A stretch of 64,000 nt of DNA from a virus, in the IMG/VR virus record IMGVR_UViG_3300031853_000023, positions 7,254 through 71,253 of that record; one strand, given 5' to 3'. Position 1 is the stretch's first letter, and the number at the start of each line of letters is the position of its first letter. The position numbers and the translations under genes are program-made. Below, one piece after another: positions 30,758 to 64,000 of this stretch. A model generated the notes under the pieces. The model saw only the letters and a program-made list of their open reading frames with translations, was not told where the DNA came from and did no database searches.

Positions 30758-33253
30758 ATGGCAAGATATAATGAAGATAATTATATGGAACAGGCTCCAA
30801 TGAATAGACAAAGAGACCTTGTCCTTTCTACTAATGAGTTTTGTTTCCTTCAATCTAAAACTAATGGTGCGATAAAAACTTATACAGGCCCCATTACTAT
30901 GACTATTTCCGCACAGGAAAATCTTGTAATATTTGATGCTAAAACAAAGCGTTTTAATGAAACTCAAGATTTTGAAAAAGCAAGACAGATTTTTGTATCT
31001 GCTCCTGAAGGTTGGTACATTGTACTTAAAAATCCTGCGGAAGACGGTTCTCATCCTGAAGCAGCAAAAGCAGTAAACAGCCCAACACTTGAAATTGGAC
31101 ATAAAATAAATATTCCTGGCCCGACATCTTTCAGCCTTTTTCCAGGTCAGATGACTCGTGTAATTAGAGGACATAGACTTCGTTCTAACCAATATCTTCT
31201 TGCAAGAGTTTATGATGCAGAAGCCGCAAAGAAAAGTAATGCAGAAGGCACAATGATTGATGCAGAGGGTAATGAAGTAAAAGCAAAACAGGAAGATTAC
31301 TTTGTAGGACAACTTCTTGTTATTAAGGGAACAGAAGTTTCTTTCTACATTCCGCCAACAGGAATTGAAGTAATCCCAGTTAATGCTGAAAATGGAGCAG
31401 GTACTGGCGCATATGTCAGAGACGCTATTACTCTTGAAAGACTGGAATACGCAATTTTGAAAGATGAAGATGGAGAAAAGAGATATATCCACGGTCCATC
31501 TGTGGTATTTCCTAAGCCAACTGAAACATTTGTATCTGCCCCAAAAGGTGGATATATATTCAGAGCACTTGAACTTTCTCCAATCAGCGGCATCTATGTA
31601 AAAGTAATTGCAGAATATGATGAAGTAAAGAATGGTAAGAAAGTACATCACCCAATAGGTGAAGAACTCTTTATTACTGGTAATGACCAAATGATTTATT
31701 ACCCAAGACCTGAACACGCAATGATTCAGTATGATGGAAAGTATATGCATCACGCTATTGCTATCCCTGAAGGCGAAGGTCGTTATATTCTTAACCGACT
31801 CACTGGTACAATTACTACAATTAAAGGCCCTCGTATGTATCTACCAGACCCCCGCACAGAAGTAGTGGTTAAGAGAAAACTTACTCCTAAAGAGTGTTCT
31901 CTGATGTATCCTAACAATGCGGAAGTTGTAAAATATAATAGCGACCTTTCTGAAAAGGCTATGACAAGAGCCGCAAATAAAGGACTACTCAGTAATCCTA
32001 TTGATGTTCTTGAAAACTTTTACTCTACTGGAGACCAAGAAGCTACTCTGGCAATCTTTGAAGCAAATGCCAACATTTCTCGTGGTGTAAGTTATACAAA
32101 ACCCAGAACCATTACTCTTGATACTAAATATGATGGTGTAGTTTCTATTGATGTATGGACTGGCTATGCAATCAATGTAACATCTAAAACAGGTAAGCGT
32201 GAAGTAATTGCGGGTCCCGCAACTCGTCTGCTTGACTATGATGAAACCGTGGAAGCTATCAAGTTCAGCTGTGGAACTCCTAAGTCTGATGATAAAACTA
32301 TTACAACAGCTTTTCTAAGAGTTGCTAATAATAGGGTATCTGATATAATTGAAGCTCAAACTTCTGATGGTATTGATGTATCTATTCATCTTAATTATTG
32401 GGTAACTTTCCAAAAAGAATATCAGAAAGATTGGTTTGCTATTGAAAATTATGTAAAATATCTATCTGATAATATGCGTTCTCTGGTTAAAAGAACTGTT
32501 AGAGGATATGATTTTAATACCCTCTATGCAAATTATACTACTGTTATTAGAAATGCAGTTCTTGATATTAAAGAAGGCAAAAAGGAAGAAGGAAGACTCT
32601 TTAAGGTTAATGGTATGCTTGTAACAGAGGTAGATATTATTAATCTTAATTTTGATAATGCATATCAGGAAGAACTCGATGAGTTCCAAAGAGATGTTGT
32701 TTTCCAAAAGTTAAAGCTGGATAATGCTCGTGCTCGTGAAAATATTGTTAAAGAAATTGCAGAAAGTGAGCAAAGACAAAACAAATGTAATCACGAAGTT
32801 AATATGAAACAGCTGGCTCTTAAGCAAGAATTTGAACTTACAAAACTTGCTAATGATGCTGCTCAAACCACAAAGAAAGATGAACTTGAAGCCGCAAGAT
32901 TCCAAGCTCGTAGGGATATGCAGGAAGTTCTTAATGCTATTCAAACTGCGGAAGTTGCTCGTAGAAAAGAAAATGACACTGTTGAAGCAGAAAAACTTGC
33001 AAGACTTGCTGAAATTGAAAAGGCTAAGCAGCAAGCATATGCTGATACAATTAAAGAAATTCTTGGAGCAATTCAGCCTGGACTTATCGAAGCCATTAGC
33101 GCAAAAGCAAACGCTCAGCTCCTTACTGATGCTGCAAGTGCTATCGCTCCATATGCTATCGCTCAAGATGAATCTGTTGCAGACTTTACCAATAAGCTGC
33201 TTCGTGGAACCTCTCTTGAAAATATACTAAATAATATGTCTAAAAAAGACTAA
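30758..33253 (+). CDS. Major vault protein (MVP)-like protein: N-terminal MVP repeats, SPFH/band-7-like shoulder, C-terminal coiled-coil cap-helix; no TAG
   Basis: Compared with rat MVP: KTYTGPITMTISAQENLV resembles SRVEVGPKTYIRQDNERVL; FVSAPEGWYIVLKNPAED resembles VTVPPRHYCIVANPVSRD; FSLFPGQM resembles FPLYPGEV; IKGPRMYLPDPRTEVVVKRKLTP resembles [23 protein letters not shown]. The C-terminal 250 aa are an Ala/Glu/Lys/Gln-rich coiled coil. Confidence 0.55.
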   Translation: MARYNEDNYMEQAPMNRQRDLVLSTNEFCFLQSKTNGAIKTYTGPITMTISAQENLVIFDAKTKRFNETQDFEKARQIFVSAPEGWYIVLKNPAEDGSHPEAAKAVNSPTLEIGHKINIPGPTSFSLFPGQMTRVIRGHRLRSNQYLLARVYDAEAAKKSNAEGTMIDAEGNEVKAKQEDYFVGQLLVIKGTEVSFYIPPTGIEVIPVNAENGAGTGAYVRDAITLERLEYAILKDEDGEKRYIHGPSVVFPKPTETFVSAPKGGYIFRALELSPISGIYVKVIAEYDEVKNGKKVHHPIGEELFITGNDQMIYYPRPEHAMIQYDGKYMHHAIAIPEGEGRYILNRLTGTITTIKGPRMYLPDPRTEVVVKRKLTPKECSLMYPNNAEVVKYNSDLSEKAMTRAANKGLLSNPIDVLENFYSTGDQEATLAIFEANANISRGVSYTKPRTITLDTKYDGVVSIDVWTGYAINVTSKTGKREVIAGPATRLLDYDETVEAIKFSCGTPKSDDKTITTAFLRVANNRVSDIIEAQTSDGIDVSIHLNYWVTFQKEYQKDWFAIENYVKYLSDNMRSLVKRTVRGYDFNTLYANYTTVIRNAVLDIKEGKKEEGRLFKVNGMLVTEVDIINLNFDNAYQEELDEFQRDVVFQKLKLDNARARENIVKEIAESEQRQNKCNHEVNMKQLALKQEFELTKLANDAAQTTKKDELEAARFQARRDMQEVLNAIQTAEVARRKENDTVEAEKLARLAEIEKAKQQAYADTIKEILGAIQPGLIEAISAKANAQLLTDAASAIAPYAIAQDESVADFTNKLLRGTSLENILNNMSKKD

Positions 33254-33258
33254 ATAAT

Positions 33259-33298
33259 AATTCCGAGTAACATTACATTACTCGGAATTTTGTTGTTT
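33259..33298 (+). terminator. Rho-independent terminator
   Basis: An 11-bp stem AATTCCGAGTAA/TACTCGGAATT followed by TTTGTTGTTT. Confidence 0.7.
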
Positions 33299-61878: not shown

Positions 61879-61909
61879 ATAATGTAAAGATAAAAAAGGA
61901 GATGATAAT

Positions 61910-63209
61910 TTGAGTCGTTTTGAAGTTCATACTCATAGTGAATATTCAAATCTTCGCTTATTGGATAGCATAAATAAGATTCCAAAATTAATCAATAGAG
62001 CAGTAGAACTTGGTTTAAGTGGTATTACAATCACTGATCACGAATGTTTATGCGGACATCCAGAAGCAAACTTCTATGCAGAAGAAATAAATAAAGAATA
62101 TCCTGATTTTAAGGTTGCTCTTGGAAATGAAATTTATTTAACAGAGAATAGAAGTAAAGGACAAAAATATTATCACTTTATTCTCATTGCAAAAAATAAA
62201 ATGGGTTATAAAGCTCTTAGAGAGCTTTCATCTTATTCTTGGATGAATAGCTATTGGGATAGAGGTATCGAAAGAGTTCCAACAACTTATTTAGAGCTTG
62301 AAAATATTTTGGCAAAATATCCTAATAGTTTAATAGGTACAACAGCTTGTCTTGGTGGGGAATTATCTTCACATATTTTAAATTTAATCAAAGCAGAAAA
62401 GCACGGTTTAGAAGATGAAATAAGAGAAATTAAAATTTCTATTATTAATTTTGTAAAATGGTGCAAAGAAATTTTTGGTGATGATTTCTATATTGAATGT
62501 GCCCCTGGACGTTCAAGTGAACAAATTGCCGCGAATAAAAGATTAATGTCAATAGCACACGCATTTAATTGTAAAATGGTAATAGGAACAGATGCGCATT
62601 ATCTTACAAAAAAAGACAGATATGTTCATAAATCATATCTTAATTCAAAAGGCGGAGAACGAGAAGTTGATGCTTTTTATGAATATGCTTATCTTCAAAG
62701 TGAAGAAGAAATAAAAGCAAATCTTATTCCTTCTGAGTTAAACTATGATGCATTAGTTGCGGCATCCGAAGAAATTTATAATAAAATTGAAAATTATAGT
62801 TTAAGACATAATCAAACTATTCCAAAAGTTGAAGTAAAAGATTATGTAAAATATGAAGATAGAAGTTTAAAAGACTTCCCAACTTTGTACAATATGAAAA
62901 TATCCGATGATAAATATGAAAGATATTGGATAAATGCTTGTTTAAGTAAATTAAAGCAAATGAATATAGATAATGATAAATATATGCAACGACTTGAAGA
63001 AGAAGCAGATATAAAGAAAACAATTAGTGAAAAACTTGGAACTAATATGTTTAGATATCCTATTGTTCTTCAACATTATGTTGATATGTTCTGGGAGTGT
63101 GGAAGCACAGTTGGTGCGGGAAGAGGTTCTTCCTGCTCTGGTTTAAATCATTATCTTTTAGGCGTTACACAGCTTGACCCAATAAAAAGAGATTTGCCAT
63201 TCTGGAGAT
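61910..63209 (+). CDS. dnaE: DNA polymerase III alpha subunit, exon 1 (PHP domain); no TAG
   Basis: HTHSEYSNL..LDS..ITDHE..G (PHP). The terminal ..LPFWR resembles PolIII alpha ..FERFLNPER. The frame is broken 3 codons later by an intron. Confidence 0.55.
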
Positions 63210-64000
63210 TAGAACTTTAAGAAATAGTCTCCCTATACTGTGAAGTATAGTATAAAAAATTTCGTGAACTCTGATGCTCAGAGGTGTGTAAAGAACAAAT
63301 AGTTTGAGTAGGAAATGACTCATTAATCTTTATGCTAACCGGGAAGCCTTAGCAAGTAAAGTTGAAGGTAATCCAGTGCCAAGATAATAAAATATAGGTT
63401 ACTCGAATAAAAAAATAAAGTGCAACAAAGATAAGGGTAGTTGCTTAATGATAGAGAGGACCGACATAAGAACCTTGATGTGACTTAGACCTATATTATA
63501 TTATAAGGTGTAACGACTATCCGAAAGGAGTAAGGCGGAGGATGAGCTACCGTCTGAAGTGCGAAAATCTTTAAATATTTTCTACCGTTTTGGTCAAAGT
63601 GGTAGAATTCAATTAATCAAATTTTCATATATAAATGAAAGAAGAAATATGAAAGGAGATTAATTGATATGTTAATCTATAAAATAACTAATACAATAAA
63701 TAATAAAAGTTATATTGGTCAAACAATAAAAACTGCTGAAGAAAGGTGGAAAGAACATCAAGCACATGCTTTTGGTTCTCATCCGAATGATCAAAATAAA
63801 ACTTTATATAAAGCAATTAGAAAATATGGAGTTGAAAATTTTACATTTGAAGTATTGCAAGATAATATAGAGACATTTGAGCAATTAGATAAAGCAGAAA
63901 TTTATTGGATTGATTATTATAATAGTTTTGTAAAAGGATATAATGAAACATTTGGAGGTCAGCAATATCATAAAATTCTTCCAAATAAAGAAATTATAGA
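63210..64000 (+). mobile_element. Group I intron in dnaE (5' portion; runs off the window) carrying a GIY-YIG homing endonuclease
   Basis: P1 pairs GGAGAU(U) with (A)GUCUCC (63226..63232) and has a U.G wobble at U63209. The P7 5' strand CGACTATCC is at 63514. The structured, GC-richer region 63230..63600 resembles the dnaB intron core (..GAAGTGCG..). Confidence 0.45.
63669..64000 (+). CDS. Intron-encoded GIY-YIG homing endonuclease (partial; continues past the window end)
   Basis: RBS AAAGGAGA then ATG at 63669. IYKITNTINNKSYIGQT..RW..H..YN..GYN. Confidence 0.5.
   Translation, partial: MLIYKITNTINNKSYIGQTIKTAEERWKEHQAHAFGSHPNDQNKTLYKAIRKYGVENFTFEVLQDNIETFEQLDKAEIYWIDYYNSFVKGYNETFGGQQYHKILPNKEII

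Follow-up and report, generated by a model that had tools for sequence, protein, structure and literature searches.

Gene content of the window

We analyzed how the amber codon TAG (UAG in mRNA) is used and read in a 64,000-nucleotide (nt) stretch of viral DNA, corresponding to positions 7,254 to 71,253 of the IMG/VR record IMGVR_UViG_3300031853_000023; this whole 64-kb stretch is referred to below as the window, and all coordinates are counted from its first letter. The window comes from a large tailed phage in which TAG is a sense codon, frequent in virion genes and nearly absent from replication genes, and codon-level alignments indicate that it likely stands for glutamate (Glu) rather than for the usually assumed glutamine (Gln). 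When genes were called with TAG as a sense codon, open reading frame (ORF) cover of the first 30.6 kb rose from about 0.4-0.7 under the standard code to >0.9, and treating TGA as sense gave no gain in ORF cover of the window. The guanine-plus-cytosine (GC) content of the window was about 28%. Relatives ranged from 117 to 188 kb, and several of their contigs were from assemblies with rumen or gut source names. Megablast searches with both window halves against 50,697 phage records returned no match, and matching by exact pattern or exact protein recovered just one IMG/VR fragment of 8.4 kb, which overlaps 55.6-64 kb. ARAGORN detected no tRNA in the window, and Rfam reported no RNA family at all there at an E value of ≤1. 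A crAss-like identity, the first guess from the giant ORF, was ruled out, given that the 3142-amino-acid (aa) protein reads as a tape-measure protein and that the replication genes are those of DnaE, gyrase, and LigA.

Gene functions were assigned from Pfam and PHROGs profile matches, and the labels early, middle, and late denote predicted function only. The genes fall into three blocks: tail/baseplate-type genes on the plus strand (180-16040), fibre-, spike-, and tape-measure-like genes on the minus strand (16444-30574), and replication genes on the plus strand (30758-64000). In the replication half, the gene names proposed in an earlier, sequence-only reading agreed with Pfam and PHROGs, except for a supposed winged helix-turn-helix (wHTH) gene at 48352. 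The features of the replication half are as follows.

30758-36634, plus: major vault protein (MVP)-shoulder-domain protein (MVP-like, 831 aa), 117-aa ORF, RNA ligase, 98-aa ORF, AAA_33 kinase, metallophosphatase (Pfam); 0 TAG in 1797 codons
36925-38514, plus: GH25+CHAP endolysin (Pfam); 4 TAG, at codons 71, 76, 124, and 143, all in GH25
38580-39371, plus: 263-aa low-complexity ORF adjoining the endolysin; 3 TAG; no Pfam or PHROG match
39751-48187, plus: RNase H, GyrB, GyrA, 82-aa ORF, NAD-dependent ligase (LigA) (Pfam); all TAG-free
42521-42946, plus: homing-endonuclease-like ORF between gyrB and gyrA (phrog_7168, E=2e-10); 3 TAG
48352-48639, plus: 95-aa gene, no family match; 1 TAG, at codon 29
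48707-49597, plus: 296-aa GIY-YIG ORF (GIY-YIG E=1.6e-9, residues 201-283); 12 TAG
49979-50671, plus: 230-aa HNH/homing-endonuclease-like ORF (phrog_559 HNH endonuclease, E=2e-35); 5 TAG
50814-54474, plus: hypothetical genes, a wHTH gene (122 aa), a 328-aa ORF, the Sak4-like gene, and a 174-aa ORF; replication/recombination block
52764-53825, plus: Sak4-like AAA_24 ATPase (E=4e-38); 1 TAG, at codon 74 inside the domain
54447-57181, plus: dnaB (DnaB_C), with exon 1 at 54447-55736, an intron of 1166 nt at 55737-56902, and exon 2 at 56903-57181; 0 TAG in the exons
55822-56643, plus: LAGLIDADG endonuclease ORF in the dnaB intron (LAGLIDADG_3 E=3.5e-9); 7 TAG
within 57331-64000, plus: primase-like gene and RecD-like helicase gene (Pfam); 0 TAG in each
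58479-60293, plus: RecJ-like DHH gene; 2 TAG, at codons 67 and 165, the latter inside the DHH domain
62201-63209, plus: exon of DnaE (DNA polymerase III alpha; Pfam); 0 TAG

The tail/baseplate-type genes listed below were defined by ORF calls with TAG as sense; those at 180-11829 matched PHROGs that are all without assigned function, and homologues of the large tail genes were present in phAss-1 and Enterococcus phages.

180-653, plus: tail/baseplate-type gene; 3 TAG
683-3775, plus: tail/baseplate-type gene; 14 TAG
3952-8481, plus: tail/baseplate-type gene; 27 TAG
8641-9153, plus: tail/baseplate-type gene; 5 TAG
9167-11503, plus: tail/baseplate-type gene; 5 TAG
11521-11829, plus: tail/baseplate-type gene; 3 TAG
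11977-13991, plus: TAG-free three-gene cassette (166, 258, and 153 aa); GC 34-38% versus about 25% in the flanks
14006-14596, plus: small late-block gene; 1 TAG
14596-14910, plus: small late-block gene; 3 TAG
14979-15476, plus: small late-block gene; 0 TAG
15552-16040, plus: RuvC-like resolvase (phrog_827 Holliday junction resolvase, E=2e-18); 4 TAG
16444-17880, minus: receptor-binding/tail-fibre-like gene, 478 aa; 0 TAG; GC 46%, GC at third codon positions 49%
17899-30574, minus: tail-spike-like gene (953 aa, 19 TAG), 89-aa gene (1 TAG), and tape-measure-like gene (3142 aa, 69 TAG)
21146-30574, minus: the tape-measure-like gene of 3142 aa, labeled from reading the sequence by eye

TAG is a sense codon with a split distribution

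UAG is a sense codon in the window. Pfam profile matches ran unbroken across TAG in GH25 (1-180 of 180), AAA_24 (2-195 of 195), and DHH, and the 44 complete genes ended in TAA (33) or TGA (11), never in TAG. The Logan contig L013, whose identity to the window's left part is about 95%, retains TAG at 62 of 65 window TAG positions; the fraction kept was 56/57 for positions 180-9153 plus 11521-11829 and 3/5 for the gene at 9167-11503. The window thereby shows three features of a mixed-code phage, namely, in-frame TAG in conserved genes, the lack of a TAG terminator, and enrichment in late genes with depletion in early ones. Among its IMG/VR relatives, some genomes appear to use the standard code and others are TAG-recoded, a mixture also described for Agate phages.

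The sequence-only reading had described large early genes free of TAG, some early and middle genes with one or two, and TAG-dense late genes, and its per-gene counts matched ours gene by gene. No TAG was present in the genes for GyrA (779 codons), LigA (687), the MVP-like protein (831), primase, RecD, RNase H, RNA ligase, kinase, and phosphatase or in the DnaE exon, while Sak4 had one, the RecJ-like gene two, and the endolysin four. The single TAG of the gene at 48352 was also recovered, although the wHTH label given to that gene found no family match, and the four TAGs counted for RuvC are real but belong to a RuvC-like gene at 15552-16040, outside the range 30758-64000 to which it had been assigned. 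For virion genes, a density of roughly 1.5 to 2 TAG per 100 codons had been proposed, and most tail genes were found to carry 1.4-2.9.

By predicted function, late genes held 154 TAG in 8392 codons (1.84 per 100), and replication-type (early) genes held 4 in 7557 (0.05 per 100), fewer than the 139 that the late-gene rate predicts (Poisson p about 1e-53). The endolysin was intermediate (4 in 529 codons, 0.76 per 100), and the homing-endonuclease genes formed the densest class in the window (27 in 1050 codons, 2.6 per 100). A uniform density, once gene length is taken into account, was thus contradicted, with strong heterogeneity over 47 genes (G=251, 46 degrees of freedom, p=5e-30). Since the trinucleotide TAG in any frame was equally common in the two window halves (13.2 versus 12.8 per kb), base composition is not the cause of the split.

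What the sequence-only reading had overlooked are four TAG-rich homing-endonuclease ORFs in the replication block and five TAG-free genes in the tail block. The latter total 1220 codons (p=2e-10 at the late rate), and such TAG-free genes show that gene history, besides function, shapes TAG density. The temporal control of translation by a phage suppressor tRNA that had been proposed therefore stands in part: sense TAG, its exclusion from replication genes, and a suppressor outside the window are upheld, but expression timing, a gradual build-up of the suppressor, and a graded early/middle/late series were not established; the intermediate genes are mainly selfish endonuclease genes plus one lysis gene and do not make up a middle class.

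A sharper test of such gating than raw TAG density is the ratio of TAG to GAG, because GAG is probably synonymous with TAG (see below). Late genes gave a ratio of 154:66, TAG there making up 70% of NAG-type Glu codons, and early genes gave one of 4:83 (odds ratio 48, p=4e-28). The contrast with a probably synonymous codon is the best sequence-level support for the idea that early genes need to be translatable before a suppressor acts, but it is no proof of timing.

The alternative that survives best, although we regard it as improbable, dispenses with temporal gating: the suppressor would always be available, and TAG density would follow the evolutionary rate, AT bias, and residence time of each gene. 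In line with such a scheme, TAG-free genes were higher in GC than TAG-rich ones (0.30-0.46 versus 0.23-0.29), TAG was missing from the best-conserved cassette (11977-13991) as well as from the fibre gene, which is GC-rich and looks foreign, and TAG was evenly spread along genes, with no 5' bias such as a gate might favor (Kolmogorov-Smirnov p=0.65). In addition, Sak4 and the RecJ-like gene have gained TAGs that are not present in three relatives, those of the RecJ-like gene being kept in L001. A slow drift of TAG into genes is, however, hard to reconcile with early genes that are 30-50% diverged from their relatives and yet hold 83 GAG and only 4 TAG, or with the fact that the highest TAG density belongs to endonuclease ORFs lying among the early genes, including one in the intron of an early gene. 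The same split has also been reported in independent recoded clades (bioRxiv 10.1101/2021.08.26.457843).

TAG likely stands for glutamate

The sequence-only reading named no amino acid for TAG. The default for such phages, code 15, reads it as Gln, and our comparisons contradicted this default and favored Glu. For these comparisons, 121 related loci were collected by scanning IMG/VR and JGI metagenomes with the neighboring DUF2828 protein, and multiple alignments were built for two window proteins with 20 and 35 orthologues, in which each residue was traced to its DNA codon. Among the 172 columns with TAG, the majority residue among the other codons was E in 38, K in 7, D in 7, and Q in 6, and columns with a majority of at least 90% were E in 9 cases, K in 2, and Q in 1. 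The same column-majority procedure decoded the control codons correctly (GAG=E, CAG=Q, AAG=K, GAC=D, and TCA=S).

Pairwise comparison gave the same picture. L014 is itself recoded and is 47-60% identical to the window in large tail proteins (48% for the 1509-aa tail protein). The 103 pairs of TAG with a non-TAG codon between the two had as partners Glu (36), Lys (14), Thr (9), Ser (9), Asn (6), and Gln (5); that is, TAG paired with Glu in 35% and with Gln in 5% of cases, whereas real Gln codons paired with Gln in 56%. With a substitution matrix from the same alignments, the log likelihood was -249 for E, -301 for K, and -311 for Q. A likelihood test that scored every amino acid at every TAG column by its log emission probability likewise preferred E over Q, with a difference of +29 for TAGs of the window itself in the two proteins and of +309 for all TAG columns, and the controls GAG, CAG, AAG, GAC, CAA, and GAA were all decoded correctly. 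For a third protein, the 1509-aa tail protein, compared with 119 database homologues, the difference was +11, in a set confounded by entries translated with Q at TAG. A log-odds score divided by background frequency was dropped, because such normalization gives an advantage to rare amino acids and is not the right basis for a comparison of hypotheses.

Columns 131, 1021, and 1290 of the 1509-aa protein, which have TAG in the window, hold Glu in 101/119, 109/120, and 106/117 database homologues, respectively, and some of the few Gln residues there stem from recoded relatives whose TAG had been translated as Q. The Glu-dominated TAG columns of this protein show GAA, GAG, or TAG in the relatives, with CAA and CAG never occurring. 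Individual sites in other genes agree: codon 74 of Sak4 is Glu in all three relatives compared, Glu is aligned at codon 131 of the gene at 14006 and at codons 58 and 76 of the gene at 14596, and in the small late-block genes at 14006-16040, relatives mostly have Glu at TAG positions. GAA/TAG differences, each requiring two base changes, were seen in genes sharing 85-92% identity with the L013 or L014 orthologue. As a control, phAss-1, for which TAG is reported as Gln (PMC10607447), gave three Q-majority columns and no E-majority column.

In the public protein collection, recoded genes of this kind stand at full length with Q at every TAG (e.g., P0001 and P0002 compared with L013 and L014). Since database proteins carry Q at TAG, amino acid tests based on homologues are biased toward Gln unless the DNA is checked.

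That the phage uses ordinary code 15, with TAG read as Gln and the Glu alignment arising from recent, tolerated GAG-derived changes of Glu to Gln, is in our view slightly less probable still than the absence of gating. This code is the published default for TAG-recoded phages, some TAGs fall at Gln-consensus columns, the log-odds version of the test favored Q for the 1509-aa protein, and the suppressor of the window's own lineage was not recovered. CAG is also scarce in late genes (36 versus 361 CAA), which leaves a narrow synonymous route into TAG. Nevertheless, TAG did not align with Gln in standard-code homologues, as code 15 implies, and behaved unlike the real Gln codons. It stays at invariant-Glu columns devoid of CAA and CAG, plain likelihoods favor E in all three data sets with correct controls, and the two-base GAA/TAG differences occur between closely similar genes. 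The phAss-1 control yields Q and not E, and the CUA tRNAs of the relatives are without any tRNA-Gln acceptor feature, as described next.

The suppressor tRNA

The sequence-only reading had placed the suppressor gene outside the window, which is consistent with our results: the window is free of tRNA genes, and the tRNA(CUA)-containing array of its relatives lies, by synteny, to the left of it. In L013, a DUF2828 gene left of the window start is split by a GIY-YIG endonuclease gene and preceded by a tRNA-Cys gene. In relatives, the 10 kb upstream of the DUF2828 gene hold an array of 10-24 tRNA genes, and the array of TAG-recoded relatives includes one tRNA(CUA), often adjoining tRNA-Glu, tRNA-Asp, or tRNA-Met. 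The corresponding array of the window's phage is thus likely located, as judged from synteny, 4-14 kb left of the window. A suppressor-tRNA pattern scan of IMG/VR recovered 22 loci, most with a CUA tRNA and none from the window's lineage. No tRNA was found by a scan of the 10 kb on either side of DnaE in eight relatives; a leftward walk from L056, an array contig of the window's own lineage, via its 604-aa fibre-like protein reached only contigs of ≤3 kb, and a search for relatives with the 1030-aa tail protein returned none with search patterns that were too specific.

The acceptor stem of the relatives' tRNA(CUA) resembles, at the sequence level, that of their tRNA-Glu and not that of tRNA-Gln. 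Pair 1-72 was C-G, G-C, or G.U in the seven CUA tRNAs with a clean acceptor-stem call and G.U, G-C, or C-G in tRNA-Glu (n=17), and it was U-A or A-U in 27 of 29 phage tRNA-Gln. Pair 2-71 was G.U in 5/7 CUA tRNAs, often G.U in tRNA-Glu, and G-C in all 29 tRNA-Gln, while discriminator base 73 was A or C in 6/7 CUA tRNAs, mostly A in tRNA-Glu, and G in 28/29 tRNA-Gln. The D loop had 11 nt in CUA tRNAs, 8-11 nt in tRNA-Glu, and 7-11 nt in tRNA-Gln. A suppressor with tRNA-Gln features, as expected under code 15, was therefore not what the relatives' CUA tRNAs presented. With isotype hidden Markov models (HMMs), Glu ranked first for five of nine distinct CUA tRNAs of the clade; the other four were unclear, with Glu in the top five, and Gln never ranked first.

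Host-code use of TAG, or a host-encoded suppressor, is unlikely. That the host itself reads TAG as an amino acid, so that no phage device exists, is scarcely credible: no suppressor lies in the window or in the captured array of its own lineage, but a host code gives no reason for only 4 TAG in 7557 early codons, phages of recoded hosts use the recoded codon in about 90% of genes (bioRxiv 10.1101/2021.08.26.457843), the TAG-recoded relatives carry their own tRNA(CUA), and this suppressor tRNA type was found on only 3 small contigs of metagenome-assembled genomes among 185,579 species genomes. One of these three contigs is labeled Ruminococcus sp. RUG14215, a name that suggests a rumen source, and the GH25+CHAP endolysin suggests a Gram-positive host. 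We know of no bacterium that reads UAG as Glu or Gln genome-wide.

Two further observations were made in the tRNA arrays. A tRNA with anticodon UUA, possibly an ochre (TAA) reader, stands few genes from the CUA tRNA in L026 (6057-6131) and also in L141, and ARAGORN predicted tmRNAs in L024 (7921-8198) and L030 (1036-1330).

A proposed route from tRNA-Glu to a UAG reader

Most Bacillota are without GlnRS, and their glutamyl-tRNA synthetase (GluRS) accepts both Glu and Gln anticodons, the amidotransferase GatCAB needing U1-A72 and a small D loop. In such a host, a duplicate of the phage tRNA-Glu(CUC) could have changed C36 of its anticodon to A and would then read UAG, the anticodons CUC and CUA being one base apart. 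The resulting CUA tRNA would be charged by GluRS, and without U1-A72 and with a Glu-type D loop it would be left unconverted by GatCAB, so that UAG would mean Glu. Changes from GAG to TAG would be silent thereafter and could spread under AT pressure wherever they are tolerated. They would not be tolerated in genes that need unmodified host translation at the start of infection, and the replication genes would stay in the standard code, whereas virion, lysis, and selfish endonuclease proteins would be completed only once the suppressor is present. Tail-block genes that were recently acquired or exchanged would still be TAG-free.

Taken as a whole, the observations are best explained by UAG being a sense codon for Glu through a captured tRNA-Glu and being excluded from early genes, with gating of the kind already published for recoded phages by Borges et al. 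(bioRxiv 10.1101/2021.08.26.457843); we put the probability of this reading at about 0.6. The evolutionary part, that a phage lineage, apparently from rumen or gut, reassigned UAG to Glu by means of a tRNA-Glu(CUC) copy with one anticodon change, and that phAss-1 arrived independently at Gln, we hold to be somewhat better than an even bet.

Several points weigh against the reading of UAG as gated Glu. As to the suppressor, the array contigs of the window's own lineage, L056 and L058 (DUF2828 90% identical), carry 7-9 tRNAs, flanked by protein genes, with no CUA tRNA among them, Rfam found no extra tRNA on them, and the Glu-like suppressor occurs only in relatives whose DUF2828 is about 67% identical. 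GluRS normally reads the anticodon, so Glu charging of a CUA tRNA is an assumption; moreover, the CUA tRNAs were classified weakly, with modest isotype HMM margins, and their pairwise identity to other tRNAs was all around 0.7, which does not discriminate. As to the amino acid, the background-normalized log-odds put Q before E for the 1509-aa protein, an order that the plain likelihood reverses; column 1418 of this protein is CAA in 8/8 relatives, one invariant-Gln column holds a TAG, and the TAG columns of the endolysin GH25 are E or Q in solved PDB structures and thus give no decision. As to gating, the timing labels were deduced from gene function, and the split is not absolute, as Sak4, the RecJ-like gene, and the gene at 48352 carry 1-2 TAG each and five tail-block genes carry none.

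Comparison with known recoded systems

The early/late TAG split alone makes the phage one more member of an established pattern. Like the TAG-recoded gut phages (crAss-like, Lak, Garnet, Amethyst, and Agate phages, among others; Ivanova 2014, Yutin 2021, Borges 2022; NCBI "Caudoviricetes code 15 clade"), it is low in GC, concentrates TAG in structural and lysis genes, keeps its replication genes in the standard code, has lost TAG as a terminator, and has relatives with a phage-encoded tRNA(CUA). In those phages TAG is inferred to be Gln, and for crAss-like phages Gln is reported as shown by proteomics (PMC9523058); here, by contrast, TAG behaves as Glu and the relatives' suppressor is tRNA-Glu-like. 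Agate phages have a TGA-recoded intron endonuclease in an early gene (bioRxiv 10.1101/2021.08.26.457843), and heavily recoded homing endonucleases inside early genes are likewise found here. Traits in common with Agate phages, which we take as a lead only, are the genome size, sample names that suggest rumen or animal gut, the mixed codes among relatives, and this recoded intron endonuclease; the window contains no terminase gene, by whose phylogeny membership of the Agate clade would be judged.

In the phage collection, two annotated relatives stand nearest, and one of them is phAss-1, whose homologue of the 1509-aa tail protein is about 35% identical. It has a 136-kb genome and belongs to the proposed Phassvirus, to which a group including Enterococcus phage EF1 is related, the three reported members of Phassvirus being 83-86% identical (PMC10607447), and NCBI places it in the "Caudoviricetes code 15 clade." Similarly to the phages studied here, phAss-1 has NrdD and NrdG homologues; it carries a large tRNA set with three tRNA(CUA), with TAG in virion genes and some DNA enzymes. 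However, there is no nucleotide-level similarity, and the gene order is different, so that the nucleotide identity and synteny that Phassvirus membership would entail are lacking and the similarity is at the protein level only. Its suppressors are Gln-like and its TAG columns were of the Gln type in our control; given the Glu-like suppressors here, the two lineages probably recoded TAG independently.

The same codon-to-amino-acid change is found in ciliate nuclear codes with UAG=Glu, such as the peritrich code (NCBI table 30) and that of Oligohymenophorea sp. PL0344, where the suppressor presumably also derived from tRNA-Glu by an anticodon change. These codes differ in being genome-wide, eukaryotic, and accompanied by altered release factors, whereas here a virus uses the code in part of its genome in a host that presumably has the standard code. 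To our knowledge, UAG-to-Glu codes are known only from ciliates. Laboratory amber suppressors derived from tRNA-Glu or tRNA-Gln, such as E. coli supE and the Kleina/Normanly suppressor collection of 1990, are alike in that one change at anticodon position 36 (CUC or CUG to CUA) makes a UAG reader. The GlnRS of E. coli, however, tends to capture tRNAs with a CUA anticodon; for the Glu outcome, we assume instead a host lacking GlnRS, in which GatCAB determinants decide between Glu and Gln.

Reading of amber as Glu is probably a new variant, as judged from the comparisons above, and UAG as Glu would be a code not previously described for a virus or bacterial system. No report of UAG read as Glu in phages was found in full-text literature searches, although absence there is no proof of novelty. 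Code-15 gene callers and the NCBI "code 15 clade" translate phage TAG as Gln, as does the protein database searched here. If TAG is Glu, such translations would misassign about one in five glutamates in the lineage's virion proteins, with errors in charge, in predicted structures, and in the masses used for proteomics (0.98 Da per site). Amber reassignment in phages would then be opportunistic, in that any tRNA one mutation from CUA could be captured and close relatives could reach different codes. The lineage would also offer a natural Glu-inserting amber suppressor, and it would allow clean tests, in GlnRS-less hosts, of the way in which GluRS and GatCAB determinants give a codon its meaning.

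Mobile endonucleases and other features of the window

The junctions of the dnaB intron are exact to the base, with position 55736 joining 56903 in the intron-less relatives L008, L011, and L012. An intein was ruled out for this insert: its 1166 nt are not a multiple of 3 and the other frame is used, and it is thus an intron, for which no Rfam intron model was found at an E value of ≤1. The DnaE gene is broken after 63209 by an insertion (63210-64000) with a GIY-YIG ORF starting at 63669, whereas the DnaE of relatives is unbroken with 1319-1351 aa; unlike the other four endonuclease ORFs, this one has no TAG in the 110 codons up to the window end. In the relative L006 (7309-8263), the anaerobic ribonucleotide reductase gene nrdD is likewise interrupted, here by roughly 950 bp of inserted DNA containing a 201-aa ORF with 3 TAG, a further recoded mobile ORF in an early gene. 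The ORF at 49979-50671 matched phrog_9084 (homing endonuclease) and phrog_7140 (intron-encoded nuclease) in addition to the HNH family given above.

With 4.05 TAG per 100 codons, the GIY-YIG ORF at 48707-49597 has the highest density of the window. It combines an N-terminal membrane segment and a long coiled coil with its C-terminal GIY-YIG domain, an architecture odd for a homing endonuclease, and it could be two fused functions or a lysis-related membrane protein.

In the tail block, the TAG-free cassette at 11977-13991 (phrog_16490 and phrog_20016, families without assigned function) is 97-99% identical to L014, compared with 48-60% for the flanking tail genes, which suggests a recombination hotspot or very strong constraint. 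Its counterparts in L013 (16428-19666) and L014 (12209-15251) have the middle gene split by an ORF of 245-312 aa, which in L013 has faint NUMOD/HTH matches. The fibre-like gene at 16444-17880 is not present in L013 or L014, and it had no match in a scan of 185,579 species genomes; its motif DYID..TQKRYN.DGTT also occurs in a tail-fibre-like ORF on contig L056. The gene has the look of foreign DNA, inserted recently from a standard-code source.

The 3142-aa protein looks like a tape-measure protein. At about 1.5 Å of tail length per residue, the usual rule for tape-measure proteins, it would then correspond to a tail of several hundred nanometers. Finally, the 831-aa MVP-like protein (30758-33253) has a major-vault-protein shoulder domain, and its homologues in the phage collection are confined to three huge phages of 462-735 kb (LR756500, LR756501, and LR756503), at about 38% identity.

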